Shown here piece after piece: positions 7,398 to 63,079 of a stretch of 64,000 nucleotides of DNA; positions within the stretch are counted from its first letter, which is position 1, and the number at the start of each line of letters is the position of its first letter. Made by a program: the position numbers and the translations under genes. Source of the stretch: an uncultured Verrucomicrobiales bacterium (lineage in GTDB: Bacteria; Verrucomicrobiota; Verrucomicrobiia; Verrucomicrobiales; Akkermansiaceae); the NCBI GenBank assembly GCA_949372665.1, contig CASIAV010000031.1:8699-72698 (forward strand), read 5' to 3'. The notes under the pieces were generated by a model. The model searched no databases. It worked only from the letters and a program-made list of their open reading frames with translations, and had not been told where the DNA came from.

Positions 7398-10202
7398 ATG
7401 AAGAAGAGCCTTTCAATTGTATTCAGCATTGCGTGCCTGATGGGGCCGGCAGCTCTTGCTGCTATTGCTGACGAGAAGGCGTTAGAGATTTTTGAGCACT
7501 ACTGCTTCGATTGTCACGGCGACGGCTCGGACAAAGGGGGGCTGGATCTCTCTGTGATACTCGGGAAAGAGGACTTCGATGGTTCTCTGATTTTTGAGAA
7601 TTTGGTGACGGGGAAAATGCCTCCCGCGGACAAAGATCAGCCGGATGCAAAGGAGAAGCGAGAGCTGCTGGAATGGCTCGCTGGTCGGCAGGGAAAGCAT
7701 GTTGAGAAATCCTTCCGTCGTCTTAGTCGGTATGAATTTGTTCATTCGGTGAATGATTTGTTGAGGACAGACCTCGATCTTGCCGGAAAAATTCCCGAAG
7801 ACCGGGGGACGAACGATTTTGATTCCAATCGCAAGATCAAGTTGAGCCGTGAGATGCTGGGATCGTATTTTTCAGTGGCAGACGAAATGCTCGATCATGC
7901 CTTTCCGGATGATGGGTTTCCCGCGGAGAGGAGCTGGGTCACGAACAAGGTCCGAGACAGTCATGAGAGCTACCGGATCTACCATCGGCCCTATCAGGAA
8001 GGCGCCCTTTTCTCGTGGACCCGGGCCAACAATGGCAACAGCTATTCTTTCTTCTACGACAACTTTGAGCCCCCGGTGGCAGGCTGGTATGAGTTGACAT
8101 TTGATGCCGCTAAGGTGGCCGACTTCGAAGACGATATGAGCCTGCAAGTTTATGCGGGAAAGTATTACTATGCCGATGACCGGCCGCAGCTGCAGCGTTT
8201 ACTGGGGGTGGTCTCGTTGGGGAACAAGAAATTGGAATCGTATCCCATCCGCGCCTACCTCCATCCCGGAGAAAGCGTTTCGGTGCACTGCTTTTCGCGG
8301 CACAATTTTCGTCAAAAGAATCCAAAGGAGGGAATCTACATCAAGCAATTGAAGGTCCGGGGGCCGGTGGTGGATTCATGGCCTCCGACGTCTTATCAAC
8401 AAGTCTTCGATGGATTGAGAATTGAGGCCGGGCAACGGAAGGCCCAAAAGGCTTCCGGGTTCCAAACTGAGCTCAAGCGGATCGGCGGCGTGTTTACGGT
8501 AAGTAGTTTTCAGGAGGGGATGGAAAAGGAAAGGATGCAGGATGGTTCGAATCTGACCTTCTGGCACACGCGCTTCTCTCCCTCAGTGGCGAAGCCGCCG
8601 CATTATGTGATTTTTGAAAACCCGAATGGAGCGGTCATCGAAGGACTTTCTTTTGCGACCTGGTCGGGCGGAAATGGCAATGGCTTGGTCAAGGCATACG
8701 AGATTTACTTTTCCGACGATGGAAAAACGTGGGATGATAAGGTGATGGAAGGTGGACTGGATGTCAGGCTTGCCAACGAACAAGCGGTTATCTTTCCGCA
8801 GGAAACGACCAGTCGCTTTATCAAGTTCCAGGTGACGGCCTCCGTTCAATTAGATGGGAAATCAATCGCTTCGATTGGCAAGTTGGACCTTATCACTCCT
8901 TTGGTTGAACAGGTTGAAACGTCCACGGTTACAGTTGCTTCAAGGAACCCCGATGATTTAAAAAAAGTGATTCGCCGTTTTGCGAAGCGAGCTTTTGCGT
9001 CGACTCTCAGTGAGGAGGAATTGGCGCCATACTACCGGGTTGGACTTCGCCGACTTGAGGAGAGAGGCGACTTTGTCGAGGCGACCAAGGTTGGGCTAAA
9101 GGCTATTCTTTGTTCACCAAGATTCCTGATGGCGCCCGGGGAGCATGCCAATTCGTCGTTTGGCAAAGCCTCGGATCTCGCTCGTATTTTGTGGCTTTCG
9201 GTTCCCGATGAGGAACTTTTGAAGTTGGCTGTTTCAGACTCGCTTCATGGCGCGACCTTGAATGATCAAATTCAGAGAATGTTGGCCGATAAGCGCAGCC
9301 GCCGCATGGTTCGCTCCTTCAGTGATCAGTGGCTGAATCTGCGTGGCCTCAATAAGGTGGCGCCTTCCTTGAAACTCTACCCGCTTTACGATGACCTTCT
9401 GAATTACTACCTCCCCATCGAAACCCGGAAATACCTTCAGCATTTGATCCATGAAAATCTTCCCGCCCGAAATCTCATCGATTCGAATTTCACTTTTCTC
9501 AATCAACGGCTTGCCCGGCACTACGGGATCAAGGGAGTGACTGGACAAAAAATACGCAAGGTAAACTTTTCAGACGAAGTGCCCCGTGGCGGACTTCTCA
9601 CGATGGGGAGTGTCTTGAAAGTGACGACGGATGGCTTCGAAACCTCGCCCATTTTACGGGGAGCCTGGATCTCCAAAAATATTGTGGGCACGCCGCTCTC
9701 GCCACCGCCGGAGAGTGTTCCGGCCTTGGAACCGGAACACGGAGAAGCAAAGACGCTCAAGGAACAGATCGATCAGCACAAAAGCAACAAGACTTGCTAC
9801 GCCTGCCACAAGAGTATCGACGGGTATGGCTTCGCATTGGAGAGCTTTGATGCCACGGGGGGATGGCGTGATCAATATCGGGTTAAGCAAGCCCATGGAG
9901 GCACTTTTCAGTATCGTCCTCAAGGCTACTTTAAGAGGGGTGCACCAGTTGATGCATCCGGAGAGATCGACGATGCCAGCTTCCAGGACATTTTTGGGCT
10001 CAAGAAGGTTTTGCTCTCCAGCGAGCGGAAGCTTGCCTATAACTTTGGGAAGAAGTTTTTCGAATACGCCTATGGAGACAAGCCGGATTTGAGCCAGCGC
10101 CTTCAGTTGTGGGACTTTTTTGGAACGAATCCTGGAAACCTACGACTGGGAACTCTCATGACCCACGTCCTTACTCATTCAACGAACGGAAAAGAGAAAT
10201 GA
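7398..10202 (+). CDS. Large secreted two-CxxCH protein of DUF1587/DUF1595/DUF1592/DUF1588/DUF1585 type with an inserted F5/8 type C (discoidin) domain
   Basis: Start chosen at ATG 7398 (MKKSLSIVFSIACLMGPAALAA signal) rather than the track start 7266. N-terminal CFDCHGDG. SRYEFVHSVNDLL (DUF1587-like). SPRFLM (DUF1592-like). SPILRGAWISKNIVGTPLSPPP (DUF1588-like). CYACHKSIDGYGFALESFD (DUF1585-like). Confidence 0.85.
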   Translation: MKKSLSIVFSIACLMGPAALAAIADEKALEIFEHYCFDCHGDGSDKGGLDLSVILGKEDFDGSLIFENLVTGKMPPADKDQPDAKEKRELLEWLAGRQGKHVEKSFRRLSRYEFVHSVNDLLRTDLDLAGKIPEDRGTNDFDSNRKIKLSREMLGSYFSVADEMLDHAFPDDGFPAERSWVTNKVRDSHESYRIYHRPYQEGALFSWTRANNGNSYSFFYDNFEPPVAGWYELTFDAAKVADFEDDMSLQVYAGKYYYADDRPQLQRLLGVVSLGNKKLESYPIRAYLHPGESVSVHCFSRHNFRQKNPKEGIYIKQLKVRGPVVDSWPPTSYQQVFDGLRIEAGQRKAQKASGFQTELKRIGGVFTVSSFQEGMEKERMQDGSNLTFWHTRFSPSVAKPPHYVIFENPNGAVIEGLSFATWSGGNGNGLVKAYEIYFSDDGKTWDDKVMEGGLDVRLANEQAVIFPQETTSRFIKFQVTASVQLDGKSIASIGKLDLITPLVEQVETSTVTVASRNPDDLKKVIRRFAKRAFASTLSEEELAPYYRVGLRRLEERGDFVEATKVGLKAILCSPRFLMAPGEHANSSFGKASDLARILWLSVPDEELLKLAVSDSLHGATLNDQIQRMLADKRSRRMVRSFSDQWLNLRGLNKVAPSLKLYPLYDDLLNYYLPIETRKYLQHLIHENLPARNLIDSNFTFLNQRLARHYGIKGVTGQKIRKVNFSDEVPRGGLLTMGSVLKVTTDGFETSPILRGAWISKNIVGTPLSPPPESVPALEPEHGEAKTLKEQIDQHKSNKTCYACHKSIDGYGFALESFDATGGWRDQYRVKQAHGGTFQYRPQGYFKRGAPVDASGEIDDASFQDIFGLKKVLLSSERKLAYNFGKKFFEYAYGDKPDLSQRLQLWDFFGTNPGNLRLGTLMTHVLTHSTNGKEK

Positions 10203-11434: not shown

Positions 11435-11643
11435 ATCGGATCCATTATGGGATCTTCATCATCGTGACCTTTGAGATTCCTTCGTCATTACAGGCGACCA
11501 GAGGGGCGGCGACTCATTCCAAGGGCAGGGAGAGGCCAAGTAGCTTGCAAAGGTAAAGCATCAGGCAGGTGGCCTTCTTCAAGTGCTTATTATCCATTGA
11601 CCTTTACCCCTGAGTCACTACATCGCTTGGATTGAATTGGGTC

Positions 11644-14115
11644 ATGAAGAAGCAAGTATTACTCCTCATTTTGCTTTTGCCGGTTTCGGTAATGGCGGTG
11701 GATATGCGGAGCTACAACGATCTTGTGATGCCGTTTTTGGACAAGCATTGCACGAACTGTCACGATGCAGATGATCCGAAAGCCGACCTAGACTTGTATG
11801 CGATCAACGCAGAGTTCGATAAGATTAAAACGGTGCGGGTCTGGCAGAGAATCTACGAGCAGGTCCAATATGATGAAATGCCGCCTGCAAAAAAGAAGCG
11901 CCCTGATGCCGCGGAGCTGCAAAAAGTGATCCAATGGATCTCTTCTGAACTCAACAAATCAGGACATGGCACCGGTCTGGAGGAGAAGCTACTGCTGCCT
12001 GATTACGCCAACTACATGAGCCACGAATTGCTGTTCAATGGCAGTATTACAACAAAAGCGTATACCCCGGCTCGCTTGTGGCGCACCCGCCCGTTTATTT
12101 ACGAAGCGAACTTTGCCGAGCGATATGGGAAGAAGCCCAGGCAGGGATTTCAGATCGGAGGGAAAGGCCGAGATATCGTTAAGGAAGGCGATCATGCAGG
12201 AAAGACTCTTGCGCGTGGACGATCCTACCAACACCTGCGTTATGCCAACCCCTTTTTTCAATTCGTGCACCATGCTTCGGGGATTACCGACTATAGCTCG
12301 ATTGTAGCTGATCAGACTTCCCTTGAAACACTGCTGGTGAATGCGGAAAAGATGGCTGAGATCTTGACGGTCGGCCGAGCGATTCCTGTCAGCGTGACGA
12401 TTAAAAATGACGGTAGCAAGTTCGCCAACAATCCGGGTGGCTTTGCCGGGGGGGCTGTTACCAGTTTCGTGAAGAATGTCGGCTTGATCAAACCGGCTTT
12501 TATTAAAGTGCTCAACTCTAAGGGAACTCCAAGCGACGCGGACATCAACACGGCGGTGCAGACCTGCTTTAAGGTCCTCTTGCATCGTGACGGGAACCCC
12601 GAAGAAGTGCGCCGCTACGGCGACGACCTGTTTAAGAAGAACTTACCTCAGGGCAATCTAATGGCACTGCAAAGCGTCCTAATCGCCATGGCGATCTCTC
12701 CGGAGTTTGTCTATCGTCTAGAATTGGGCATGGGTGAAAAGGACAGTCACGGCCGCCGACATCTCTCAGAACATGAGCTTGTTTACGCCTTGAATTATGC
12801 CCTGTTCAACAGTCCTCCCTTTGATGACTTTGACCACAAGCGTAGCAAGGACAAAAATAAAAAGGGAGGCCTAGATTCGCCGGGTGTCGACGACCTGCTC
12901 TACTATGCGAAGAACAAAATCTCCAAGCATCCACTGGACGGAGTGGAGGATATGGCGCTGATTGATGAGACCTTGGAAAAGTTTCTCATGACCCCTAGGG
13001 GAAGTGTTTCGGGGCTCGGCGAAGTGATGAAAGCAGGCCAGCTCAAGACAAAAGAAGATGTGGAACGTGAGTTACGCCGACTGCTCAGTGTGAAATTATT
13101 CACTCGTCCCAAAAGTGACAGTCGCCCGGCGCATCGAATTAAAAATCCAAGGATCCTCCAGTTCTTCCGGGAATTTTTCGGCTACCACCACGCTCCCAAT
13201 GTGTTTAAGGACGAAAAGCGCTTTGCTTATTATTCGGAGAGCGGCACTCGAAGCATGGTCAGCGACACTGACCAGTTAATTCTCTACCTTGTTGACCAGG
13301 ACGAAAATGTGCTGGAGAACATGCTGACCACAAACCTCAGTTTTTTTAGCACGAGCATCGGTAATAGACCATTGAAAGCGGCTCAAAAAGCGCAGGAAAA
13401 ATTTGAAAGTAAAAAGATCACAGGCGAACTGAGCCCGATTGAGAAACTGCATAATAAACATTACTCGATGTCTTATAATGTGAATCCGGGTAGCGCTGAA
13501 AATTCGAGTAAAAAGCCCTACAGTCTGCCTAAAGCGCAACGCATTGGCATCCTCACTCAACCCTCTTGGCTGGCCGCCCATTCAAATAATTTTGAAAATG
13601 ATCCTGTGCGCCGAGGCAAGTGGATACGTGAAAAGCTGCTGGCCGGCTTTGTCCTTGATGTTCCCATTAACGTAGACGCAAAGGTGCCAGAGGATGAAAA
13701 CAAGACGCTACGCGAACGTTTCTCGGTCGTTGAAGCTGAAGAATGCTGGCGCTGTCACAAGAAAATGAATCCGCTCGGGATGCCTTTTGAAGGTTATCAT
13801 GACAGCGGTCGTTTCCGTACTGAGGAGAAAGGCAAAGCGGTCACCACCAAAGGTGCCATAAGCTACAGCGGGGAAAAAGATCTTGATGGCGAAGTGGCGA
13901 ATGTTTCCGAGATGATGCACAAGCTGGCTCAGTCCAAGCGCGTTAAGCAATCATTCGTCAGACATGCGTTTCGTTTTTTCATGGGACGTAATGAATTGCT
14001 CAGCGATTCGCAAACTCTCATCAATGCGGAAAAAGCCTATGTCGATAGTAATGGAAGTTTTAAAGAAATGTTGATTTCACTTCTCACGTCAGATTCATTT
14101 TTATACCGGAAATAG
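11644..14115 (+). CDS. Large secreted two-CxxCH protein, DUF1588/DUF1585-type C-terminus
   Basis: ATG 11644 (MKKQVLLLILLLPVSVMA signal; the track start is TTG 11632). N-terminal CTNCHDAD...DEMPP. C-terminal GILTQPSWLAAHS...DPVRRGKWIREKLL and CWRCHKKMNPLGMPFEGY. Confidence 0.8.
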   Translation: MKKQVLLLILLLPVSVMAVDMRSYNDLVMPFLDKHCTNCHDADDPKADLDLYAINAEFDKIKTVRVWQRIYEQVQYDEMPPAKKKRPDAAELQKVIQWISSELNKSGHGTGLEEKLLLPDYANYMSHELLFNGSITTKAYTPARLWRTRPFIYEANFAERYGKKPRQGFQIGGKGRDIVKEGDHAGKTLARGRSYQHLRYANPFFQFVHHASGITDYSSIVADQTSLETLLVNAEKMAEILTVGRAIPVSVTIKNDGSKFANNPGGFAGGAVTSFVKNVGLIKPAFIKVLNSKGTPSDADINTAVQTCFKVLLHRDGNPEEVRRYGDDLFKKNLPQGNLMALQSVLIAMAISPEFVYRLELGMGEKDSHGRRHLSEHELVYALNYALFNSPPFDDFDHKRSKDKNKKGGLDSPGVDDLLYYAKNKISKHPLDGVEDMALIDETLEKFLMTPRGSVSGLGEVMKAGQLKTKEDVERELRRLLSVKLFTRPKSDSRPAHRIKNPRILQFFREFFGYHHAPNVFKDEKRFAYYSESGTRSMVSDTDQLILYLVDQDENVLENMLTTNLSFFSTSIGNRPLKAAQKAQEKFESKKITGELSPIEKLHNKHYSMSYNVNPGSAENSSKKPYSLPKAQRIGILTQPSWLAAHSNNFENDPVRRGKWIREKLLAGFVLDVPINVDAKVPEDENKTLRERFSVVEAEECWRCHKKMNPLGMPFEGYHDSGRFRTEEKGKAVTTKGAISYSGEKDLDGEVANVSEMMHKLAQSKRVKQSFVRHAFRFFMGRNELLSDSQTLINAEKAYVDSNGSFKEMLISLLTSDSFLYRK

Positions 14116-14125
14116 GAGCTAGCTC

Positions 14126-15490
14126 ATGAAATACAGCAGACGCCACAGCATCAAAACCCTCGGGAAGCTATCTCTCGGAAGCATGGCCTTCACGCCCTTC
14201 ATGAATCATCTGGCAGCCCAGCGTACTACGGGAGCCACGCCTAAAAGATTTTTGTTTGTGCTGAAAAGCAGTGGCCTTACCGAAGAGCACATCACCCCTC
14301 CGGCCTATCGGCCTTTTCTTGAGAGTCCTGTCGATAAAGTGATCGATAAACCGCTTCAGGGCGTCGCGCTGCCCGAGACTCTAACCTCTCTTGATCCGTT
14401 CAAGGATAAGATGACGATCGTGCAGAGGATCTCCGGCAAAATGTGTGCCACGGGCCATAGTGGATTTTATGGCGCGCTGGGTGCCTTTAAGGGTTCGAAC
14501 ACCAAAAAGCCGATCGCTCATACCATCGATGGTTATCTGGCCAAGAAGTTCCCGAGTGTTTTCAATCATGTGGGTTTAAAGACGGGCAACGGTTCGGAGT
14601 CTGTTGCTTATCCATCTATTTCTTCGGCTGGAGGGGGTAAGCAACTTCCCTATCAGTGCAACCCTATGATTGCCTATATGAATCTCTTCGGTTCGATCGC
14701 AGAATCTGGAGATGTTCAAAAGAAGTATGCGGCCTCAGGCAATATCTTGGACTTCGTATCCAATGATGTCAAAAAGCTGAAGCGACAACTCAATGGGGCC
14801 GAAGCCGAGAAGCTCGACTATTATCTAGAGGGGTTTGATGCCTTGAAAGAGCGCCGTATAAAGCTCACCGGCATGCAGAAGATTTTGAATCAGAATGCAC
14901 CGGAGGTGACCGACACATTCACCTCGCCCAACCCCACGCATCATCTCGAAGCGCACTTTGATTTGGCGGCCGCCACTCTGATCAGCGGTCTCTCCAATTC
15001 TATCAGTATTCTTTGCGATGATCTTCAAACAAACTACGACGGTATTGGAATACCCGGGACAGTTCATGGCATCGGCCATGGCGCGACGATCGGCGAACAC
15101 AATTCCGAGCAGTGCCGAGATTTGATTCGTAAGTTTCACCTCGAGCTTCTCTCTGGGCTGATGCATAAGCTTGCGAAGGTGCCAGAAGGCGATGGCACGA
15201 TGCTGGACAATACCGTCATCGTCTACCTTAGCGATAACTCAGATAAGCATCACTCCTTCGCCAACGAGTGGCCTCTTTTGCTTTTTGGCGGTAAGTTTAA
15301 TGGCCGGCTGAAGTCCACCGGGCGCTATCTACAGTATCCCGATTACGGCAAGCAGGGACATCGGACGATCGGCAACTTCCTTACAACCATCGTGCAGGCG
15401 GCCGGCTTGCCCGACAAACATTTTGGCCACTTGGATCTTGGGCTGAGCGATCTCGACCAAGAAGGTCCCCTCCATGAACTCTTAGTTTAA
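14126..15490 (+). CDS. DUF1552-like protein, Tat-signal, with a degenerate HXXSHH motif
   Basis: RR leader MKYSRRHSIKTLGKLSLGS. Collinear with the other two DUF1552 ORFs. The position of the HxxSHH signature reads HGIGHG. Confidence 0.75.
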   Translation: MKYSRRHSIKTLGKLSLGSMAFTPFMNHLAAQRTTGATPKRFLFVLKSSGLTEEHITPPAYRPFLESPVDKVIDKPLQGVALPETLTSLDPFKDKMTIVQRISGKMCATGHSGFYGALGAFKGSNTKKPIAHTIDGYLAKKFPSVFNHVGLKTGNGSESVAYPSISSAGGGKQLPYQCNPMIAYMNLFGSIAESGDVQKKYAASGNILDFVSNDVKKLKRQLNGAEAEKLDYYLEGFDALKERRIKLTGMQKILNQNAPEVTDTFTSPNPTHHLEAHFDLAAATLISGLSNSISILCDDLQTNYDGIGIPGTVHGIGHGATIGEHNSEQCRDLIRKFHLELLSGLMHKLAKVPEGDGTMLDNTVIVYLSDNSDKHHSFANEWPLLLFGGKFNGRLKSTGRYLQYPDYGKQGHRTIGNFLTTIVQAAGLPDKHFGHLDLGLSDLDQEGPLHELLV

Positions 15491-15512
15491 TCTTTCTCTC
15501 TCTCCCTAAATT

Positions 15513-16532
15513 ATGATGAAAAAACTCACCCTCTTCCTCCTCGCATGCAGCCTGTCTAACGGTCTCCTCGCAGCAAACAAGAAGCTCAAGGTCTACATCT
15601 TGGCTGGGCAATCCAATATGCAAGGACATTGCACGACCTCTGTGATTGAGAACCGCTTAAAAGATCCGAAACTTAAAGTGGGGTTCGAAAAATACCATCA
15701 AGGTGGATCCTTCGTTAAAAGGAACGATGTTTTCATTAATCACATCGAAAAAGAAATGCATGGACCCATGAGCGTGGGCTATGGGGCCAGTAATGAGAAG
15801 ATTGGCCCGGAACTTTCCTTTGGATGGACCATCGGTGACAAGCTGGATGAAGACGTGTTAATCATCAAAGCAGCCTGGGGAGGGAAATCACTCTTTCGCG
15901 ATTTCCTGCCGCCCAGTGGCCGGAAGCCGGACGATGCCTTCATTCAGGCGCTGGAAGATAAAGCAAAAAAGAAAAAGAAGCCCTTTTTAAAAGAGGAATA
16001 TATGGAGGGGTTTGGGCATTATTATCGACTGATGATGACAAGTGTTGGTGAGACTCTCGGTGATCTCAAAACTTACGCGCCCAACTACAAGGGGCAGGGG
16101 TATGAGATTGCGGGGTTCGTCTGGTTTCAGGGCTTCAACGATAAGTTCTCTGACCATTCCACAAGCACCTATCAGGAGAACATGGCGCATTTCATCAGAG
16201 ATGTCCGCAAAGACTTAAAGTTACCCAAGCTTCCTTTTGTGATTGGAGCGATGGGGCACCAAGGCACCGAGCAAAAAGGAACGACCAAGATCCTCGCCGA
16301 CGCGCAAATCGCGACCGCGCAAATGCCTGAATTTAAAGGCAGCGTCATCACCGTGAAGACCGCTGATTTTTGGGACTACGATGCCGGGAAAGCTTTCGAG
16401 AATAAAAACAAGGACCCCGATACTTGGGCAAAACTTGGGAGTAATAGAGCGTATCATTATTTTGGCAGCGCTGCTTTCTTTGAGAAAACAGGAACTGCCT
16501 TCGCGGATGCGATCATCGAATTAGGGAAATAG
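15513..16532 (+). CDS. Sialate O-acetylesterase-like (SASA/DUF303, CE6-like SGNH) secreted esterase
   Basis: Signal peptide, then KVYILAGQSNMQGH, AAWGGKSL and FVWFQGFND motifs. It is paralogous to 51159-51881 and 51997-53058. Confidence 0.75.
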   Translation: MMKKLTLFLLACSLSNGLLAANKKLKVYILAGQSNMQGHCTTSVIENRLKDPKLKVGFEKYHQGGSFVKRNDVFINHIEKEMHGPMSVGYGASNEKIGPELSFGWTIGDKLDEDVLIIKAAWGGKSLFRDFLPPSGRKPDDAFIQALEDKAKKKKKPFLKEEYMEGFGHYYRLMMTSVGETLGDLKTYAPNYKGQGYEIAGFVWFQGFNDKFSDHSTSTYQENMAHFIRDVRKDLKLPKLPFVIGAMGHQGTEQKGTTKILADAQIATAQMPEFKGSVITVKTADFWDYDAGKAFENKNKDPDTWAKLGSNRAYHYFGSAAFFEKTGTAFADAIIELGK

Positions 16533-16543
16533 AACGACCAAGC

Positions 16544-21039: not shown

Positions 21040-21117
21040 CTGACATCAGAGTCTTAGAAGTCCGTGTGGGAAAAAAATCTGGAAAGCTCACATCAAAATT
21101 ACCGTAGTAAATACCTA

Positions 21118-24102: not shown

Positions 24103-24138
24103 GTTGAATGGTTTAACTCTCCGTTAGGAAACCAATCG

Positions 24139-41009: not shown

Positions 41010-41082
41010 TCCGTATCGTGATTTCTTTTTCGCCCGATCTTTCTGCCTCGACCCGGGGAAAAGGCGTCCCTATTCTTCTACG

Positions 41083-53058: not shown

Positions 53059-53071
53059 ATTAGCTCACTAG

Positions 53072-53105
53072 AAGGGCGGATCCGTGAGTTTGCGGACCCG
53101 CCCTT
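53072..53105 (+). terminator. Stem-loop terminator candidate
   Basis: AAGGGCGG-A-TCCG / TGAGTTTG loop / CGGA-C-CCGCCCTT, starting 14 nt after the stop of 51997-53058. There is no strong T-tract. Confidence 0.5.
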
Positions 53106-53211
53106 ACTTTGTACAAAAGCTTTAGTTGACGACTTTCTATTCAGGAGCGGCCTTGTCTGGTCAAAGGGGTCCAGTCACATTTTTGAACCTAGCAACTGCG
53201 GTGGTTTAGCG

Positions 53212-56200: not shown

Positions 56201-58848
56201 GGGTTGCGGAGATGGCAGATTATCCCTCTGGAGTTGATGGAAAGCCTGGAGGACGTGTGCGTTTTTTGGAGGATCTTGATGGGGATGGGAAATACGAAAA
56301 ATCGACTCTTTTTCTCAAAGGGCTCAATTACCCTGCGGGAATCATGTCTTGGCGCAGTGGAGTAATTGTAGCGGCCGCGCCTGATTTGATCTATGCGCAA
56401 GACACCACTGGTGACGGTAAAGCTGATCTCCAAGAAGTGCTCTATTCCGGATTCAAGCAAGGCAATCAACAGCTACGAGTCAATGGATTGAGCTGGGGTT
56501 TGGACAACTGGATTCATGGTGCCAATGGGAGTCACCATCCTGGGTATGCAAAAAATACCATGATTCATTCTTCGCGAGCAGGAAGCACTTTACCACTAGG
56601 TAGTATGGACTTTCGAATTCGTCCCGATGAGGGGCTGATGGAAGCTCTCTCTGGACCTTCTCAATTTGGCCGAGCGCGCGATGATTGGGGGAATTCGTTC
56701 GGGGTGCAGAACAGTTTCCCCCTTTGGCACTATGTTTTGGAGGAGCGCTATTTGACTAGGAACATTAATTTTGCACCACCTGAAATTCGTCGTCAGCTTC
56801 GCCCTCAAAATCCGCGAGTGTTTCCAGCGTCATCCCTCCAGAAACGGTTTCACAGTTTTAATCAATCTGGGCGTTTCACGAGTGCTTGTTCGCCGATGAT
56901 TTATCGTGATCGACTTTTGTTTGACGACGAGCAGGTGCATGCTTTGACCTGCGAGCCCTTTCATAACTTAGTGCAGCGAGTCGTGTTGGATCGTGATGGC
57001 TACAGCTTTAAAGCCAAGCGGGCAGAAGAAGGAGCCTTTGATTTTTTTGCTTCTGAGGACAGATGGTGTCGCCCGGTGATGGCCCGAACTGGTCCAGATG
57101 GTGCCGTGTGGGTAGTCGACATGTATCGATATATGATTGAGCATCCCGAGTGGTTGCCTGACGAGGGGAAAAGAGAAATGAAAGCGCACGAGCGCAAGGG
57201 GTCTGGTTACGGGCGGATTTATCGTATTTTGCCCAAGGATGAGCCGGTCCGGGAAATCCCAGATCTGGCGAAGGTTGCTCCCAAAAATCTTGTGAGGTAT
57301 TTGGCAAGTCCAAATGGAATTGTGCGAGATCTTGCTCATCGCCTTCTTGTCGAAAGAAAAGCGGTTTCGGTGACTGGTCAGGTTTCGAAGATGGCCTTAA
57401 AACATCCGAGTCCTAGAGCTCGTTTGCACGCTCTGTGTGTGCTCGATGGAATCAATCGATTGACTCTGGAGATCCTCTATTCCGCGTGCAAGGATCCCCA
57501 TCCTCAACTTCGTCGTCATGCCGTTCGTCTTGCGGAATATCGCTGGGCTAAAGAGCCTGAATTAGTCGTAGCCGTCTCGGAGATGATCGATGATGTTGAT
57601 TTAGGGGTGCGCTTGCAGGTGGCTTGCTCATTAGGCAACTCAAAGAGACCTGAAGCGGGCCATGCTCTGGCTGCCTTGGCGGTAGATAATGCCGCGGACC
57701 CTATGATTAGGGCGGCAGTGATGAGCTCGCCTCCGCATCATTTTATTGCCCTAGCCGAGCGAGCTCTTGATCAAGGGGTGTTGGTTGACGAGCTCATTAA
57801 AGTGGCTGGGGCTAAAAACCATGCCGCCTTAGAAGCACTGGTTACCCGACTCTCCCAGCCTGGCAAAGAAGGCTTCCAACCGGTGCAATTCCAATCGCTG
57901 AGCCATTGGGCTGATCTTCATCCCCAAGCTTCAGTAAGTCTCAGTCATGTGATTGGGGAGGCACGCAAAATCGTCCGCATGCCAGGGGGATCGAGCCCGC
58001 TTAAAATTGCCGCAATTAGCTTATTGGGAAGAGAGGAAAACAAATTTAAGAGCGACCGAGATCTCTTAGGAGAATTACTTATTTTGTCGGAATCCAGCGA
58101 AATGAAATTTGCGGTGATTGAAGCTCTTGCGAGAATGGGTGGACCGGACATACCACGCCTTATGATTGGTTCTTGGAGTGGATGTTTTCCTCGAGAAAGG
58201 TCAAAAATTATGGACACCCTCCTCCAGCGAAAAGAGTGGGCGATGACAATGCTCAAAGCGATAGGACAAGGTCAAATTTCGCCAGAAGCAGTTGATGTTT
58301 CGAGGCGCCAGATCCTGCGAACTCATGCGGATGCCGGGATTAAAAAGATGGCAGAGGAGTTGTTTCCCTCTCATGGAGGACTGACACGAGCGCGGCAGCT
58401 CAAGAAATTCCGTTCTGCTTTGGAACTTAAAGCGAATCCTCAAGATGGGCGAGCGGTGTTCAATCGAGCCTGTGCGCATTGTCACCTTTCGGTAAAGGGT
58501 CTCCCCATGAATGGGCCAGACCTACGCTCCATTACAGAGCGTAGCAAGGAGGGTCTCTTCACCTCAATTTTAAATCCTAACGAATCAGTGGACCCTTCTT
58601 ATTTCGGTTATTCAGTGACTCTTAAAGACGGTAAAATGCTCTTTGGAAGGGTTCTTGCAGAAAAGGAGAACAATCTCACTTTGAGACTTCTTGATGGTAG
58701 TGATCGTCAGATTCTCCGAAAAAGAATTAAAGGTTTAGACACAAGTGGGCGCTCGCTTATGCCAGATGGTCTCGAGCTTGGTATGACCCACCAAAATCTT
58801 GCTGACCTGATTGGATTTTTACAAACCTTTGGGCGCGAAGGTGAATAA
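53212..58848 (+). CDS. 1878-aa fusion protein: neutral-ceramidase-like N-terminal domain, two LamG domains, PVC-type dehydrogenase-like propeller, HEAT repeats and a C-terminal CxxCH heme domain
   Basis: The start is uncertain (53212, or Met at 53290). Ceramidase-like VAVVDSCMIPRDVCDRT...IVIAATHTHSAPS. LamG-type GRLDEVAWFKGAFS and GRLDHVALYDRALS. IHVPEGYRIELVASEPLIKDPVAIDWGADGKLWVAEMADYPSG. HEAT-like repeats. ACAHCH...SLMP. Confidence 0.8.
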   Translation: MEEGPDQSWPYLPLKDRVPPSSLRLVMVLLKIINPASLAKRLLLLSALGSYLLVGLLSLSADSHLAEQNLLAGAHVQDITPPFDSLLINGGFVERRRGKMQPGDLKARCFVLQRGEVSIAVAVVDSCMIPRDVCDRTKALASQKTGIPIDQIVIAATHTHSAPSTMDYCLGTMADPAYTEFLPSKIAEGIVKAYGKIEPAQIGHKQVKATGYNYNRRWITRPDQMQRDPFGDKTVRAMMHPGFRNPKYVGPSGPVDDELSVLSIQALNGDPIGVLANFSMHYHGGGGGPADYFGLFSDRLAKQLAVGGREPVCAMTQGTSGDLHLRDYEGDRTNSDISIYTDGLVEIAKGAVEKVRYDRSPLLGMDQKELTLSRRLPDAKRLAWADKMLSEMKGQRPKNRPEVYAEQARYIHKNPTENLVLQTLRIGNLGITTIPNEVYAITGLKLKAWSPFPSTFNIELANGAAGYIPPPEQHALGGYTTWPARTAGLEVEAEPKIVETLLSSFESLAGKPRRPSLRHQGDYVKWIMAQKPLAYFQCEDLGGGTLDDASGQGRSGHVEGVVAYHLPGPECQAISEQNSNNALQLAGGRISVTVPKARTLSFWFWNGMSNTVRDHTGDLVQHGVSRFLRIGGKADGESSGSLILQDGEKRFFGKTKLALKAWHHVVMSQEEEEVKIYLDGHIIPEVSAPLTPSESEQWHLGGELPVEGRLDEVAWFKGAFSQKEAARNFSASRMTPPARPAPPRPKYDRGAMAGYQKSVLASQPSVWIEHGNEASQQRVQKKFEGIEDVYTVEFWVRNQLPNQIRPVTAYLFSRGVDGMKEAEGDHLGIGGSHLAAGKLIVFQGNRSGGLLTGVTELEPNSWHHLAMIREGERVRVYLNGRSEPEIDGTLARTYPDGHPEFFFGGRSDRFSILEGRLDHVALYDRALSIVEISEHYEAVNLLPSEKNLEESNSGALSPQDALSSIHVPEGYRIELVASEPLIKDPVAIDWGADGKLWVAEMADYPSGVDGKPGGRVRFLEDLDGDGKYEKSTLFLKGLNYPAGIMSWRSGVIVAAAPDLIYAQDTTGDGKADLQEVLYSGFKQGNQQLRVNGLSWGLDNWIHGANGSHHPGYAKNTMIHSSRAGSTLPLGSMDFRIRPDEGLMEALSGPSQFGRARDDWGNSFGVQNSFPLWHYVLEERYLTRNINFAPPEIRRQLRPQNPRVFPASSLQKRFHSFNQSGRFTSACSPMIYRDRLLFDDEQVHALTCEPFHNLVQRVVLDRDGYSFKAKRAEEGAFDFFASEDRWCRPVMARTGPDGAVWVVDMYRYMIEHPEWLPDEGKREMKAHERKGSGYGRIYRILPKDEPVREIPDLAKVAPKNLVRYLASPNGIVRDLAHRLLVERKAVSVTGQVSKMALKHPSPRARLHALCVLDGINRLTLEILYSACKDPHPQLRRHAVRLAEYRWAKEPELVVAVSEMIDDVDLGVRLQVACSLGNSKRPEAGHALAALAVDNAADPMIRAAVMSSPPHHFIALAERALDQGVLVDELIKVAGAKNHAALEALVTRLSQPGKEGFQPVQFQSLSHWADLHPQASVSLSHVIGEARKIVRMPGGSSPLKIAAISLLGREENKFKSDRDLLGELLILSESSEMKFAVIEALARMGGPDIPRLMIGSWSGCFPRERSKIMDTLLQRKEWAMTMLKAIGQGQISPEAVDVSRRQILRTHADAGIKKMAEELFPSHGGLTRARQLKKFRSALELKANPQDGRAVFNRACAHCHLSVKGLPMNGPDLRSITERSKEGLFTSILNPNESVDPSYFGYSVTLKDGKMLFGRVLAEKENNLTLRLLDGSDRQILRKRIKGLDTSGRSLMPDGLELGMTHQNLADLIGFLQTFGREGE

Positions 58849-58894
58849 ACAACCTCCAAATGGATTCGAGTTCGGCGATGGATATCTGGGAGAG

Positions 58895-60286
58895 CTAGGC
58901 GATGATGCCGCGTTCCACGTTCCCGGCGACGTCGGTAAGTCGGAAGTCACGGCCAGCGTAGTTGTAAGTGAGCTGTTCGTGGTCAAGCCCAAGGAGATGG
59001 AGCATCGTAGCGTGGAGGTCATGCATGTGAAGTCGGCCGCTCACCGCGGTGTCACCCACTTCATCGGTTGCCCCGTGGGCGTGACCTGGTTTAGTGCCTC
59101 CTCCGGCTAACCAAGTCGTGAAGCCGCGTGGGTTGTGGTCGCGGCCGTCCTTGCCTTGTGAGAAGGGTGTGCGTCCAAACTCTCCGCCCCACCAGACAAG
59201 GGTGTCTTCCAGAAGGCCGCGCTGTTTGAGGTCTTTTAAAAGTCCGGCCACGGGCTGGTCGGTTGCGTGAGCGTGGACCTTGTGCTTGGGCATGTTGGAA
59301 TGTTGGTCCCAGCGTGGATTAACTGACTCATCGGAGTAGTTAACTTGGATAAAACGGACTCCGCGCTCTGCGAGCCGGCGGGCCATTAGGCATTGTCTGC
59401 CATAGTCGTCGGTCGCTTTTTCGCCAATCCCATACATGGATTTAGTAGCTTCAGATTCTTCCGCGAGGTCGAGAATGTCGGGGGCATTCATCTGCATCCG
59501 GAAGGCAAGGTCGAAGGAGTCGATAGCAGCGTTGATATTTTGATCGTTTTTGGTTTGCGCCTGCTGTCGGTTCAGTTGTTGGAGGAAGTCGAACTGTTTT
59601 GACTGAGCGTTGAGGGGAAGGTGTGGGTTTTTGAGATTTCTGATGGTGGCTTTTGATGCAGGAAGTCCGGCTCGGCCAATGCAGGTGCCTTGGTGGACAG
59701 CTGGGAGAAAAGCATTGGAGTAGTTGCGCGGTCCGCCCTTGCTGGCGGAGGGCATAATGGTGACAAAGCCAGGAAGGTTCTCGTTTTCGGTTCCCAGACC
59801 ATAGGTGATCCAGCTGCCCATGGAGGGGCGGACTAAGTTAGTCGCTCCGGTATGAAGAAAGAGGGTGGAGGGGCCGTGCGCCACCCCTTCGGTATGCATG
59901 GAATGTATAAAGCAGAGATCATCGACATGCTTTGCGATGTGGGGAAAGAGAGAGCTGACCCAGCGACCGGATTCACCGTGTTGCTTGAAATCCCAAAGCG
60001 GTTTGAGAAGTTTCCGTTGGGATTTTTTGCCGAAGGTGTTTTTGCGGACACCCACGAAATCAAAAGATTGTCCGTCGCGTTTGATAAGCCCGGGCTTGTA
60101 GTCGAAGGAGTCAACATGGGAGGGCCCTCCAGCCATGAAGAGAAAGATGATCCTTTTAGCGCGAGCTGGTAGGACAGGAGATTTTGGAGATAGAGGGTTG
60201 CTGAGACCTTTGCCTAAAAGGGAGGAAAGCGCGAGGGAACCGAATCCACAACTGGACGATTTTAGCAGCTGGCGACGGTTGAGCAT
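58895..60286 (-). CDS. DUF1501 domain protein, Tat-signal
   Basis: Start at ATG 60286 (MLNRRQLLKSSSCGFGSLALSSLL) rather than the low-complexity track start 60547. [22 protein letters not shown]...GRDHNPRGFTTWLAGGG. Confidence 0.9.
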   Translation of the reverse strand: MLNRRQLLKSSSCGFGSLALSSLLGKGLSNPLSPKSPVLPARAKRIIFLFMAGGPSHVDSFDYKPGLIKRDGQSFDFVGVRKNTFGKKSQRKLLKPLWDFKQHGESGRWVSSLFPHIAKHVDDLCFIHSMHTEGVAHGPSTLFLHTGATNLVRPSMGSWITYGLGTENENLPGFVTIMPSASKGGPRNYSNAFLPAVHQGTCIGRAGLPASKATIRNLKNPHLPLNAQSKQFDFLQQLNRQQAQTKNDQNINAAIDSFDLAFRMQMNAPDILDLAEESEATKSMYGIGEKATDDYGRQCLMARRLAERGVRFIQVNYSDESVNPRWDQHSNMPKHKVHAHATDQPVAGLLKDLKQRGLLEDTLVWWGGEFGRTPFSQGKDGRDHNPRGFTTWLAGGGTKPGHAHGATDEVGDTAVSGRLHMHDLHATMLHLLGLDHEQLTYNYAGRDFRLTDVAGNVERGIIA

Positions 60287-60332
60287 AGGCTGAAGGTTTG
60301 GTTTTGTGACATGAACTATCCCGCTGTGTGGT

Positions 60333-61283
60333 TTAGTTGATGAAGCGAAAGTCGATGGTTGAGAAGAGAGCTTGAGTGAGTTGGGTCCAAGCTTCTGTTT
60401 TTTGTTCGGGGGGGAAGCTGGCGAGAAAGGTTTGAGAGGAGAGGCGTTCGCTTTCGGAGGGAGGACGGGAGAGGATGAGGAGGTAAGTATCTTCGACGGT
60501 TCCCGCTTCGGCGAGAAGTCTTTTGGCGGTGAGTTCTGACTGCTCACGTATAAAGGGGCTGTTCATGAGGAAGAGTGCCTGGGTGGGGAGGTTGGTGGTG
60601 GAACGCCGTCCTACCACAAGATTTGGATTTGGGGCGTCGAAGACCTCAAAAATAGGGAGCATGGAATTGCGGAACCACGGGACATAGACACTCCGGCGGT
60701 TCGAATCAAAATGGTAGTTGAGGTCGTACTGTCCAGCATTTCGAATCGTCGGCCCGCCCTTGATGGGATCAAATTGTCCGCTGAGGTGAAGAGCGGTGTC
60801 GCGAATAGCCTCGGCTTCAAGGCGCTTACGATGAGCTCGACCAAAGAAGCGGTTTTCAGGGTCGCTAGGGTCAGCAGTTTTCGAGGATAGCTGATAGGTT
60901 CGACTCAGGACGATTTCGCGGATGAGTGATTTGATTGACCAATTATTTTCGGTGAACTGGATCGCTAGATGGTCGAGCAGTTTAGGATGACTTGGCAATT
61001 CTCCTGTTTTCCCAAAGTTGTCGACGGTGCGCACGATGCCTTCACCGAGGAGATATTTCCAAATGCGGTTTACCATGACTCGAGAAGTGAGCGGATGCTG
61101 AGGATCAGTGATCCATTCGGCGAGTTCAAGCCGCCCGGAATGACCTTCCGGAATTTCGTGGGATGTTCCGGCTTGGGAGGCGACGGTGATGAAACCCCGC
61201 GGAACCTTGGCTCCTTTGTTGCGGACCAGGCCGCGGATGTGGACGTGCCCGTCTGCGATCGTCTCGGCTTCGGTCGGCGCCAT
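60333..61283 (-). CDS. DUF1553 (PSD1) C-terminal half of a split DUF1549/DUF1553 gene
   Basis: 316 aa. LELAEWITDPQHPLTSRVMVNRIWKYLLGEGIV...GELPSHPKLLDHL matches the C-terminal halves of the intact paralogs. It starts 20 nt after, and in a different frame from, the stop of 61304-63079. Confidence 0.8.
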   Translation of the reverse strand: MAPTEAETIADGHVHIRGLVRNKGAKVPRGFITVASQAGTSHEIPEGHSGRLELAEWITDPQHPLTSRVMVNRIWKYLLGEGIVRTVDNFGKTGELPSHPKLLDHLAIQFTENNWSIKSLIREIVLSRTYQLSSKTADPSDPENRFFGRAHRKRLEAEAIRDTALHLSGQFDPIKGGPTIRNAGQYDLNYHFDSNRRSVYVPWFRNSMLPIFEVFDAPNPNLVVGRRSTTNLPTQALFLMNSPFIREQSELTAKRLLAEAGTVEDTYLLILSRPPSESERLSSQTFLASFPPEQKTEAWTQLTQALFSTIDFRFIN

Positions 61284-61303
61284 CGTGATGGGTTGAAGCT
61301 TCT

Positions 61304-63079
61304 TTAATTTAGCCGTGAGTATTTGTGTCGGCTTTCAAGTTTCTTAAGATTAGCTTTGGACTTCTGTGGAATTACAGAATTTGGTGTGATGAAAGCTACG
61401 GCATCGGCGATGACATGGGCCGTGGTTTTCTCGGTGGAGATGACGATGGATGCCGGCTTTTCGCTTGAGAATGGAAATGTTCCAACGTTGGTAAATGTTT
61501 CCCAGATAGAAGCCTGCTTCGATTGGTCAATGATAACAGTCGTTGTGCCTTCGGCGTGGTGAATGGTGACAGGAACGTTTTTGGCACGATTGGGGCCTGA
61601 ACTGTAGGCGACCAGAACTTCATAGTCGCGATTTCCCCCAAGAGTGGTGGTGAACTTGGCTCTCTTTTCTCCCTTACCGGTATTTTCGTCGTGGAGGTAG
61701 CTCTTGCCGATCCAAGGTTTTGTAGCGGTGGATTCCTTCCACTTTCCGGTTAATTTCGCTTCGGTAGAATCAATGATGATTCCAGGAAATTTTTTTAGAT
61801 CAGGTGAGCTTTTGAGTGTATCAATTTGTTTTTTGAGAGAGTCGATCGAACTGCGGAGCTGTGTGATCTCGGCAGGATTGGAAATTGCGAGAGGGTTGGT
61901 GGCGAAGGAAGTGACTCCGGAGGCGGCGCTGCCTTTACCCATGGAGCGCGTGCTTTGAAAGATGCCCGCAAGGGCGTAGTAGTCAGAAGTAGGGATGGGG
62001 TCAAACTTGTGATCATGGCAGCGGGCGCAGCCAAGAGTCATTCCGAGGAAGGTGCGCCCGACCGTGTCGATTTGCTCGTCGACGAATTCCATTTTGAGAA
62101 GTTCGTGATCTTGTAGTTCGTAGTTGAGTGCGCCAAGGACGAGGTAACCCGAGCCGATGAGTTGGGAATTTCGTTGGATGGGGGTCGAGTGGGAAAGGAG
62201 GTCTCCGGCAAGATGCTCGCGGACGAGTTGGTGGTAAGGCTTGTCCTTGTTAAATGAGTCGATTACGTAGTCACGGAAACGCCAAGCATCGGGAAAGACG
62301 AGGGAGCGGCCACCACCGGAGGATTCGGCAAAGCGGGTGATGTCGAGCCAGTGGCGGCCCCATCGTTCTCCAAATTCTGGACGAGCGAGGAGGTGAGCGA
62401 CGATGGTTTGGAACGCTTGCGAGGACTTGTCCCGAAGGAAGGCTTTCAGTTCGTCAGGCGAAGGTGGCAGCCCGATAAGATCGAAGTAAACGCGACGAAG
62501 AAGGGTGGTTTTCGATGCGCGTCTCGAAGGAGTGATTTTTTGGGCTTCGAGTCGGGCCAGGATGAAGCGGTCGATATCGTTGGCTGGCCATGCGGTATCG
62601 CGGGGTTTCGGGATTGGGTGGGCCACGGGAGGTTGGAAGGACCAAAATTGGCGCCCTTTATTGAGGTCGATTTGGGAAGTGGTTTTTTTGGTTTTGTTTT
62701 CGCGAGGGTCAGGGGCACCCATCGCAATCCATGACTTGAGATGCTGAATTTTAGAATCTGGGAGCCGGTTTTTAGGTGGCATTTCTAAGTCGCTATTGGT
62801 GTAGGAAATGGCGTTGAGGAGAAGGGAGTCCTCGGGTTTTCCAGGGATAATAGCGGGGCCGGAGTCACCGCCGGTTTGCCACCCGGTGCGTGAATCAAGG
62901 TAGAGGTTGGCTTTCAGCTCCTTAGCGTCGGCGGAGTGACATTCGTAACAGTGCTCGACAAAGAGAGGACGAATGTGGGTTTCAAAATATTCAATACCCT
63001 CCGAATTATTGGCGTGAACCATCGAGCCACTCGCGAGAAAGGCGAGAGTGATTTTTAGCTGACGTAAGTTGCCAAACAT
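61304..63079 (-). CDS. PSCyt1-DUF1549 N-terminal half with a golvesin-C-terminal-like beta-sandwich insert (split gene)
   Basis: Signal peptide. HCYECHSAD. GCARCHDHKFDPIP. The insert reads IIIDSTEAKLTGKWKEST...YLHD...DYEVLVAYSSGPNRAKNVPVTIHHAEG...IWETFTNVGTFPF...HVIADAVAFI. The ORF ends where the paralogs continue into DUF1553. Confidence 0.8.
   Translation of the reverse strand: MFGNLRQLKITLAFLASGSMVHANNSEGIEYFETHIRPLFVEHCYECHSADAKELKANLYLDSRTGWQTGGDSGPAIIPGKPEDSLLLNAISYTNSDLEMPPKNRLPDSKIQHLKSWIAMGAPDPRENKTKKTTSQIDLNKGRQFWSFQPPVAHPIPKPRDTAWPANDIDRFILARLEAQKITPSRRASKTTLLRRVYFDLIGLPPSPDELKAFLRDKSSQAFQTIVAHLLARPEFGERWGRHWLDITRFAESSGGGRSLVFPDAWRFRDYVIDSFNKDKPYHQLVREHLAGDLLSHSTPIQRNSQLIGSGYLVLGALNYELQDHELLKMEFVDEQIDTVGRTFLGMTLGCARCHDHKFDPIPTSDYYALAGIFQSTRSMGKGSAASGVTSFATNPLAISNPAEITQLRSSIDSLKKQIDTLKSSPDLKKFPGIIIDSTEAKLTGKWKESTATKPWIGKSYLHDENTGKGEKRAKFTTTLGGNRDYEVLVAYSSGPNRAKNVPVTIHHAEGTTTVIIDQSKQASIWETFTNVGTFPFSSEKPASIVISTEKTTAHVIADAVAFITPNSVIPQKSKANLKKLESRHKYSRLN

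Follow-up and report, generated by a model that had tools for sequence, protein, structure and literature searches.

Seven related cytochrome-c scaffold proteins of a marine verrucomicrobium, most with a differing sugar-binding-type domain at a permissive central position

Why should one stretch of bacterial DNA hold seven large genes of the same general design, and what distinguishes their products? The question is raised by 64,000 nucleotides (nt) of contig CASIAV010000031.1 (positions 8,699 to 72,698 of the forward strand; assembly GCA_949372665.1) from an uncultured marine verrucomicrobium with close relatives in Akkermansiaceae/Verrucomicrobiales, Roseibacillus among them; the whole of this stretch is referred to here as the window. 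An original prediction held that the seven proteins share a conserved framework and differ mainly by a swappable, cassette-like central domain of carbohydrate-binding type. Here, we report that the seven scaffolds are periplasmic cytochrome-c proteins, most of which carry a differing sugar-binding-type domain at a permissive central position.

An open reading frame (ORF) listing and Pfam scans of the window sorted the scaffolds into two families. Four (family II) have the domain order PSCyt1-PSCyt2(DUF1549)-PSD1(DUF1553), and three (family III) have the order PSCyt1-PSD3/DUF1587-PSD5-PSD4-PSCyt3-PSD2/DUF1585; the latter contain both PSCyt3 and PSD4 and adjoin a DUF1552 gene, the combination by which group III is recognised. 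PSCyt2 (PF07583) and PSD1 (PF07587) each scored 272–327 bits, above the gathering score, in the three intact family II proteins and were found on two adjoining ORFs, with a frameshift between them, in the fourth, while PSCyt1 scored 52–65 bits in the family II scaffolds. The motif C-A-x-C-H-[DS]-H-K-[YF]-D-P was present in 4/4 DUF1549 proteins, as predicted apart from D/S variation at one position. All scaffold N-termini are hydrophobic and signal-like, and each scaffold has two CxxCH motifs (putative heme sites, read from sequence), which in family II lie at amino acids (aa) 38–44 and 315–351. Sequence and profile searches against the PDB gave only weak cytochrome c matches for the scaffolds, at the N-terminal domain. 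A DUF1501 gene lies directly downstream of all four family II scaffolds (Pfam E = 1e-145 to 1e-159), and a DUF1552 (HXXSHH) gene follows each of the three family III scaffolds; the N-termini of these partners, read by eye, are of the RR type. The scaffold stop overlaps the partner ATG as ATGA in five of the seven pairs (at 10199, 18040 on the minus strand, 27123, 33938 and 43707), which suggests translational coupling and joint function of the pair. The pair meeting at 14115/14126 has a 10-nt spacer containing GGAG, and the partner of the frameshifted gene begins ~50 nt downstream.

These genes are paralogues belonging to the two kinds of 'planctomycete-specific cytochrome' gene pair found in Planctomycetes-Verrucomicrobia-Chlamydiae (PVC) bacteria. 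Each pair consists of a predicted Sec-exported scaffold, which bears a c-type cytochrome domain at its N-terminus and a further CxxCH, and a partner with a signal of the twin-arginine translocation (Tat) type, the two being usually coupled, to judge from the gene junctions, at the level of translation. The DUF1501 partner is alkaline-phosphatase/sulfatase-like. Six of the seven scaffolds hold a discrete beta-sandwich module between their conserved halves, and the clearest case is a family II pair with the following features.

24139-27126, plus strand: scaffold of 995 aa, PSCyt1-PSCyt2(DUF1549)-slot-PSD1(DUF1553) by Pfam, with CxxCH at aa 38 and 319 (AlphaFold2 predicted local distance difference test score, pLDDT, 80; predicted template-modelling score, pTM, 0.74)
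25246-25365, plus strand: helices preceding the insert (aa 370-389 and 393-409), from PSCyt2 to the beta-sandwich (DSSP on the AlphaFold2 model)
25417-25833, plus strand: CBM67-like lectin beta-sandwich insert, aa 427-565 (PDB profile match, Foldseek)
25855-26031, plus strand: helices following the insert (aa 573-586, 594-607 and 609-631), into PSD1 (DSSP on the AlphaFold2 model; flank homologous among the paralogues)
27123-28556, plus strand: DUF1501 partner (Pfam E = 2e-148), its N-terminus of the twin-arginine type and its start codon overlapping the scaffold stop as ATGA

A jelly-roll had been proposed at 25426-25839, a segment for which a Pfam search gave no match. A profile built from 54 orthologues of the scaffold (orthologues were found at 97–48% identity) matched, at aa 427-565, the Pleurotus ostreatus lectin (POL; 6kbj/6t0q, E = 7.5e-29) and the carbohydrate-binding module (CBM) of family 67 of the rhamnosidase SaRha78A (3w5m, E = 4.5e-18), and the excised insert alone (aa 415-579, 25381-25875) matched POL with E = 3e-14. 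The jelly-roll is thus refined to a CBM67-like lectin domain. POL belongs to a CBM67-like lectin family that binds Gal, GalNAc, GlcNAc and L-Rha (PMC11186620). The insert contains a C-D-[DN] motif that is invariant in the orthologues and aligned to D179-N180 of SaRha78A. These two residues are reported to be ligands of calcium and rhamnose; judged from the alignment, the ligand site of the insert is probably kept.

The AlphaFold2 model of this scaffold runs from the cytochrome domain (aa 26-120) through the helical PSCyt2 region (aa 141-340) and the helices at aa 370-409 into a low-confidence linker, a discrete beta-sandwich (aa 432-557), a second low-confidence linker, the helices at aa 573-631 and PSD1. 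When the model was compared with the PDB using Foldseek, 3w5m (E = 2e-8) and POL (E = 5e-8) were retrieved within a range of E = 2e-8 to 1e-7, with a target-normalised template-modelling (TM) score of 0.37 to the two-domain lectin, and all matches were confined to the sandwich. Because the sandwich alone matches the PDB, the insert of the modelled protein is a discrete domain, set between two helical arms that join the conserved halves; these arms may pack as a hairpin stalk. All four paralogues share a common order of Gly/Pro-rich linker, amphipathic helix, module, helix and a 'VM.E ... R.T.IH.RG' entry to PSD1, and the right flanks of the slot are detectably homologous among them, while the modules are not. 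Directly upstream of this scaffold, at 21064-24102 on the plus strand, lies a gene whose 1012-aa product has a cytochrome c domain at its C-terminus and weakly matches the GH2_N sugar-binding domain; the CBM67-type scaffold gene and the DUF1501 gene that follows it are on this strand too, and the three could form a single unit.

The other three family II pairs carry different modules at the same place.

18037-20913, minus strand: scaffold of 958 aa, PSCyt1-PSCyt2-slot-PSD1 (Pfam)
19216-19740, minus strand: divergent discoidin-like insert, aa 392-566, with no Pfam family (weak F5_F8_type_C match)
16544-18040, minus strand: DUF1501 partner, ATGA overlap with the scaffold gene (Pfam, N-terminus, junction sequence)
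31125-33941, plus strand: scaffold of 938 aa, PSCyt1-PSCyt2-slot-PSD1 (Pfam)
32379-32852, plus strand: Laminin_G_3 (LamG) insert, aa 419-576 (Pfam E = 8e-12, 46 bits)
33938-35350, plus strand: DUF1501 partner; the ORF opens at 33884 and its likely ATG at 33938 overlaps the scaffold stop (Pfam, junction)
61304-63079, minus strand: N-terminal ORF of the split scaffold gene, PSCyt1-PSCyt2-Golvesin_C, 591 aa (Pfam, frame analysis)
61391-61777, minus strand: CBM6/CBM35/CBM36-like insert, Golvesin_C, aa 435-563 (77.9 bits in Pfam, E = 9e-22, spanning positions 2-130 of the 132 in the model)
60333-61283, minus strand: C-terminal ORF of the split gene, PSD1 only, in a different frame (Pfam, frame analysis)
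58895-60283, minus strand: DUF1501 partner of the split gene; the ORF reaches 60547 and the likely start is MLNRRQLL at 60283 (Pfam, N-terminus)

Relative to gathering cut-offs of 27.6 bits for Laminin_G_3 (PF13385), 31.6 bits for Golvesin_C (PF25275) and 28.2 bits for F5_F8_type_C (PF00754), the predicted LamG (32351-32850) and the predicted golvesin-C-terminal-like sandwich (61388-61795) were both recovered by Pfam almost exactly where they had been placed. The domain of golvesin itself is annotated as CBM6-CBM35-CBM36_like_2 (PMC9166713). A beta-rich segment of 18037-20913 that the prediction had left unassigned proved to be a discrete domain, which we call p4-type. It scored 15.3 bits against PF00754 (E = 0.023), under the gathering score; 30 of 50 orthologues also matched F5_F8_type_C weakly (best E = 2.8e-6), and hhalign aligned it with the window's own discoidin insert over 33 columns (P = 0.0027). 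It is best described, from these profile comparisons, as a distant discoidin-like domain outside the F5_F8_type_C family proper. The scaffold itself has orthologues at 93–55% identity, Planctomycetes included. A search of 1.84 billion representative proteins retrieved 1537 representative clusters of p4-type relatives at E ≤ 1e-3, many of which (e.g. P0362-P0373) hold 2–6 tandem copies in non-scaffold proteins; hosts include giant TPR proteins (1000–4000 aa), a protein with glucose/sorbosone dehydrogenase (GSDH) and cytochrome c domains, and a PPC-domain protein. Its occurrence in unrelated architectures indicates that the domain is independent and mobile. As a smaller novel point, the insert appears to define a widespread domain family of ~1500 representative clusters that is without a Pfam model.

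The fourth DUF1549/DUF1553 gene (60333-63079, minus strand) is broken into two ORFs by a frameshift with its junction at ~61283-61335. The first ORF ends '...ANLKKLESRHKYSRLN*', the alternative frame reads 'KPTQILTAKLKKLQPITMAPTEAETIADGHVHIRG', and a 1-nt indel within ~61305-61335, just past the Golvesin_C insert, would restore one protein of ~900 aa. The split may reflect an error of sequencing, a gene that has recently become a pseudogene, or a genuine separation; the exact N-terminal ORF, when sought in public assemblies as a sign that the frameshift recurs, was not on record.

Compared pairwise, the N-terminal halves of the family II scaffolds are 32–49% identical and the C-terminal halves 38–50%, and the middle regions gave no match or short flank matches only. 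The contention that the scaffolds differ mainly by the insert was therefore overstated: with conserved halves merely 32–50% identical, they are old paralogues. Their DUF1501 partners are 40–50% identical to one another in a pattern of relatedness that parallels that of the scaffolds; in both comparisons it is the pair at 58895-63079 that stands apart. In all-versus-all hhalign comparisons of the modules none was significant, the best being the two LamGs of the window (P ~1e-3; one belongs to family III, described below) and the two discoidin-like domains (P = 0.0027), in agreement with the prediction that the inserts are of differing families. Recent exchange of a LamG between the two scaffold families was considered and ruled out, since the two inserts are barely alignable. 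Five of the six modules presumably belong to one broad jelly-roll superfamily (the galactose-binding-domain-like clan of Pfam), and LamG to another, which would make the folds less diverse than had been implied. Of the original prediction, then, discrete modules in six of seven scaffolds stand; one scaffold has no module, and the folds are probably less diverse.

The family III pairs, one of which is that scaffold without a module, are arranged as follows.

7266-10202, plus strand: PSCyt1-PSD3-(beta module + F5/8C)-PSD5-PSD4-PSCyt3-PSD2 scaffold, CxxCH at aa 80 and 844 (Pfam, sequence)
7905-8495, plus strand: beta module that is constitutive rather than inserted, aa 214-410, marked by G.Y and GP..WPP (aligned with the PSD3-PSD5 spacer of most of 66 homologues)
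8496-8840, plus strand: F5/8 type C (discoidin) insert, aa 411-525, placed after the constitutive module (Pfam E = 4e-10, 40.4–42.9 bits against 28.2)
10199-11434, plus strand: DUF1552 (HXXSHH) partner, RR-type N-terminus, ATGA overlap (Pfam, junction)
41002-43710, plus strand: PSCyt1-PSD3-LamG-PSD5-PSD4-PSCyt3-PSD2 scaffold, 902 aa (Pfam)
41878-42327, plus strand: Laminin_G_3, aa 293-442, in place of the constitutive beta module (Pfam E = 4e-26, 92.3 bits; alignment with homologues)
43707-44984, plus strand: DUF1552 partner, ATGA overlap (Pfam, junction)
11632-14115, plus strand: divergent PSCyt1-PSD5-PSD4-PSCyt3-PSD2 protein, 827 aa, without a lectin-type insert and without a PSD3 match (Pfam, model)
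14126-15490, plus strand: DUF1552 partner of the insert-less 11632-14115 (Pfam)

We retrieved 74 metagenome homologues of family III and sampled 66 PSD3-PSD5 spacers, which are usually 157–285 residues long and hold a family-specific beta module (conserved G.Y and GP...WPP; weak filamin-repeat match, E = 0.015). This module is occasionally replaced by a lectin-type domain, as with LamG, or supplemented by one, as with discoidin. Lectin-type inserts were found in 4/66 spacers of this biased sample (2 F5_F8, 2 CBM60), and the discoidin block of 7266-10202 was confined, among the sampled homologues, to its own orthologues. The discoidin (8502-8894) and LamG (41890-42330) domains had been correctly recognised in the original prediction (40.4 and 92.3 bits, respectively). 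The assertion that they occupy equivalent positions did not hold: the LamG replaces the constitutive module and the discoidin domain comes after it, so the 'equivalent central slot' of family III is only loosely equivalent. Nor was there an insert in 11644-14115, where a further unassigned one had been proposed. The AlphaFold2 model of 11632-14115 (pLDDT 77, pTM 0.79) is chiefly helical with short strands only, and a Foldseek search of it against the PDB gave no match (best E = 1.1), which together rule out a lectin-like insert. In this protein PSD4 scored just 30.7 bits, PSD5 was under the cut-off and PSD3 was absent in Pfam, and its orthologues in Planctomycetes (45–50% identity, ~800 aa) contain no extra domain.

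How variable the slot has been was surveyed in 74 family II homologues from many phyla, e.g. Verrucomicrobiota, Planctomycetota, Acidobacteriota, Bacteroidota, Hydrogenedentota and Armatimonadota. The length of the PSCyt2-to-PSD1 spacer was multimodal, with 49–53 residues in 6/74 homologues (all Bacteroidota), 84–134 in 7/74, 245–376 in 56/74 and 438–584 in 5/74; the slot was empty, linker-only, or held one or two domains. The six homologues with spacers of ~50 residues (L047, L051, L070, L073, L074 and L078) have neither linker helices nor an insert; they come from Algoriphagus, Mucilaginibacter, Spirosomataceae, Maribacter and Chitinophagaceae and are grouped on the scaffold tree. Single-linkage clustering of whole slots was uninformative, as the shared helical flanks join all of them, and slot content was instead classified with module-specific hidden Markov models and Pfam in 78 proteins, the window's four included. 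LamG was assigned to 20/78, the p4-type domain to 19/78 (18/68 sampled slots), CBM67-like to 3/78 and Golvesin_C to 1/78; 22/78 matched none of the module types tested, 7/78 held linker only and 6/78 held nothing.

Mapped onto a neighbour-joining tree built from the scaffold domains of 69 taxa, slot type required 19 Fitch changes, compared to a minimum of 6 and a mean of 40.5 over 1000 shuffles, none of which fell below 32. Slot type is thus strongly inherited yet has been repeatedly gained, lost or replaced. Each scaffold-insert combination persists in orthologues down to 48–55% identity, and the module evolves faster than the scaffold in both lineages compared by column identity (CBM67: insert 0.50, linker 0.51, scaffold 0.77–0.80; p4-type: insert 0.67, flanks 0.50–0.55, scaffold 0.83). 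These results show that evolution has repeatedly placed a self-folding lectin-type beta-sandwich (LamG, discoidin-like, CBM67-like or CBM6/35/36-like) between the two halves of family II proteins, and that each paralogue lineage has long kept its module. Of the original picture, the framework with a variable, discrete lectin-type module stands, and slot content does vary family-wide; 'swappable' is correct only as ancient domain shuffling, over deep evolutionary time.

We consider it reasonably likely that the lectin-type slot modules recruit a particular ligand to the cytochrome/partner complex. The module would be held away from the scaffold core, where it would recruit a particular ligand, most likely a periplasmic glycan or glycoconjugate; the ligand would then be brought to the complex of cytochrome and partner enzyme, and the paralogues would differ in target, not chemistry. 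That the insert would set substrate specificity is plausible. The divergence of the partners, which mirrors that of the scaffolds, and the ATGA overlaps both favour pairs that work together. Several points weigh against recruitment. Ligand binding is ascribed to the inserts from family membership alone, and discoidin and LamG domains can bind proteins or lipids too. One paralogue and 13/78 (~17%) of the sampled homologues are without an insert, which indicates that the module is not needed for core activity. The insert of the CBM67-type lineage is no better conserved than its linker. Foldseek searches with two models found no solved-structure relatives of the scaffolds beyond the insert, searches of the PDB by sequence and profile found nothing for the partners but one weak match at the Tat-type N-terminus, and a literature search found no functional paper on PSCyt/PSD, DUF1501 or DUF1552 proteins. 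In addition, both homologue samples are biased to relatives of the query, the scaffold tree carries no support values, and the proposed packing of the flanking helices as a stalk is based on one AlphaFold2 model.

The inserts might instead be protein-protein or envelope-anchoring modules that assemble or localise the complex, by contacting the partner enzyme, other cytochromes or the cell wall, and select no substrate. Protein binding by LamG and discoidin domains is known from many systems, the p4-type domain is found together with TPR and PDZ repeats, themselves scaffolds for binding proteins, and the parallel divergence of partner and scaffold would also suit recognition of the partner by the insert; F5_F8_type_C was classed as a protein-interaction domain by He et al. 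2017 (PMC5615132). However, the D-[DN] dipeptide aligned to the SaRha78A residues is conserved in the CBM67-like insert, whose nearest relatives are sugar-binding lectins, the golvesin domain that the Golvesin_C model presumably covers is classed as CBM6/35/36-like (PMC9166713), and insert-less homologues still adjoin DUF1501-type partners in published surveys, which makes the insert dispensable for pairing. We regard such a docking role as unlikely.

Less likely again is that the central region amounts to no more than a permissive loop open to insertions, with neutral passengers that play no part in specificity. The slot may indeed be vacant, contain linker only, or hold one module or two, conservation across the protein is lowest in insert and linker, and the 22 slot segments without an assigned type fit this idea as well. 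However, modules are kept in orthologues down to 48–55% identity and across phyla, they contain invariant residues, the p4-type insert is better conserved than its flanks, and slot type follows the scaffold phylogeny far beyond chance. Active exchange at the DNA level, in which a shufflon, gene conversion or a diversity-generating mechanism swaps inserts among the paralogues, is suggested solely by the words 'swappable' and 'cassette-like' in the earlier account and is effectively refuted. Neither direct nor inverted DNA repeats flank any insert, the sole repeats in the window being conserved coding stretches of the DUF1501 paralogues, and no recombinase or reverse transcriptase was found in Pfam scans of window ORFs of at least 200 aa; flanking repeats, donor copies and such enzymes would be the marks of an active cassette or diversity-generating system. 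The scaffolds are 32–50% identical, the two LamGs are only marginally similar, and orthologues elsewhere keep the scaffold-insert combination. Active cassette swapping was accordingly ruled out by the lack of flanking repeats, the age of the paralogues and the stability of these combinations, and the Fitch count of 19, against ~40 when shuffled, leaves change over deep time only.

Recruitment of a ligand by the slot module, if true, has consequences beyond this locus. Few gene families have expanded as much in Planctomycetes and Verrucomicrobia as those of the PSCyt/PSD proteins and their DUF1501/DUF1552 partners, a genome holding tens of copies, and since the PSCyt/PSD families were named in 2004 they have had no known function. 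If the slot module reports the ligand of its pair, then pairs could be selected by insert type (CBM67-like for rhamnose/galactosides, CBM6/35/36-like, or LamG). A broader and tentative proposal, which we think doubtful though worth stating, is that the pairs are a large class of periplasmic cytochrome-c-linked glycan-processing machines parallel to glycoside hydrolases, in which the module sets specificity and DUF1501/DUF1552 is catalytic. In that case the seven-pair window would be the equivalent of a polysaccharide-utilisation island, and insert identity could predict substrates for thousands of orphan PVC genes.

Other genes of the window include the following (Pfam), the esterases and sulfatase being interspersed among the pairs.

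15513-16532, 51159-51881, 51997-53058 and 28735-30837 (the last on the minus strand): three SASA-type (sialate O-acetylesterase-like) carbohydrate esterases and a sulfatase with an SGSH_C domain
53212-58848 (plus strand), 45932-47482 (minus strand) and 47473-49560 (minus strand): cytochrome-c multidomain proteins beyond the pairs
267-1616, minus strand: fifth DUF1501 gene (E = 1e-84), without an adjoining PSCyt2/PSD1 gene
2020-2721: ORF adjoining the fifth DUF1501 gene, with a weak DUF4457 match only

The sulfatase and esterases are consistent with a glycan-processing island and, as a glycan context, speak for recruitment of a ligand by the slot modules. Further neighbours are two metallophosphoesterases and the cytochrome c/LamG multidomain proteins, the latter indicating that the combination of cytochrome c and lectin reaches beyond the two scaffold families. 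One of these, of 1878 aa, is ceramidase-like at its N-terminus and also contains DUF7133, HEAT repeats, two LamG domains and a cytochrome c domain; a DUF7133-like protein adjoins a protein with two cytochrome c domains.

The lectin-insert pattern is a rediscovery of an architecture already published (PMC3542564, PMC5615132). Kamneva et al. 2012 (PMC3542564) described gene pairs of DUF1501 with PSCyt1/PSCyt2/PSD1, noted extra Laminin_G_3 or F5_F8_type_C domains, and proposed cytochromes that hand electrons to specific acceptors, e.g. sugars. Groups II and III, with their DUF1501 and DUF1552 neighbours, go back to He et al. 2017 (PMC5615132), who listed extra CBMs (Laminin_G_3, Bac_rhamnosid_N, NPCBM, CBM_6 and PA14) and protein-interaction domains (Big_2, WD40 and F5_F8_type_C), found sulfatase genes nearby and stated the function of PSCyt proteins as unknown. 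The present analysis adds the location of the slot and its helical setting, its length classes, a slot type that is inherited but changing, and the CBM67-like, Golvesin_C and p4-type identities of occupants.

The family II pairs resemble the published Group II PSCyt proteins (PMC3542564, PMC5615132) in their Pfam domains and order, adjacency to a Tat-type DUF1501 gene, sulfatase neighbours, verrucomicrobial hosts and extra domains, namely Laminin_G_3, F5_F8_type_C and a relative of the CBM found at the N-terminus of rhamnosidase (Bac_rhamnosid_N in He et al.). They differ in that the published accounts list extra domains without defining a slot, which is mapped here between PSCyt2 and PSD1, and in two further occupants, Golvesin_C and the widespread discoidin-like domain without a Pfam family. 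Likewise, the family III pairs share with Group III PSCyt proteins (PSCyt3 + PSD4, with or without PSD2/3/5; He et al. 2017) their Pfam domains, DUF1552 partner and occasional CBM-type extras; unlike the published description, the slot here normally holds a family-specific beta module, which LamG replaces in 41002-43710 and discoidin follows in 7266-10202, and 11632-14115, in which both a lectin-type domain and a PSD3 match are absent, represents a divergent subfamily. The CBM67-like insert has the beta-sandwich fold, profile match and D-[DN] dipeptide of SaRha78A CBM67 (Streptomyces avermitilis, 3w5m/3w5n) and POL (6kbj, 6t0q). In contrast to these, it is a single-copy domain inside a cytochrome-c scaffold, neither linked to a glycoside hydrolase nor a tandem lectin, and its sugar and calcium binding are predicted from sequence. 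A further parallel is offered by CBM-bearing redox enzymes, namely cellobiose dehydrogenase and Cellvibrio Cbp2D, a c-type cytochrome that reduces lytic polysaccharide monooxygenases (LPMOs; PMC8981238). Unlike those systems, the window genes have no adjoining flavin, pyrroloquinoline quinone (PQQ) or LPMO partner, and their partner is alkaline-phosphatase-superfamily-like. Like them, the window's scaffolds combine a cytochrome and a CBM in one secreted or periplasmic polypeptide, and Cbp2D carries a DUF1587 (PSD3) domain, as do two of the family III scaffolds.

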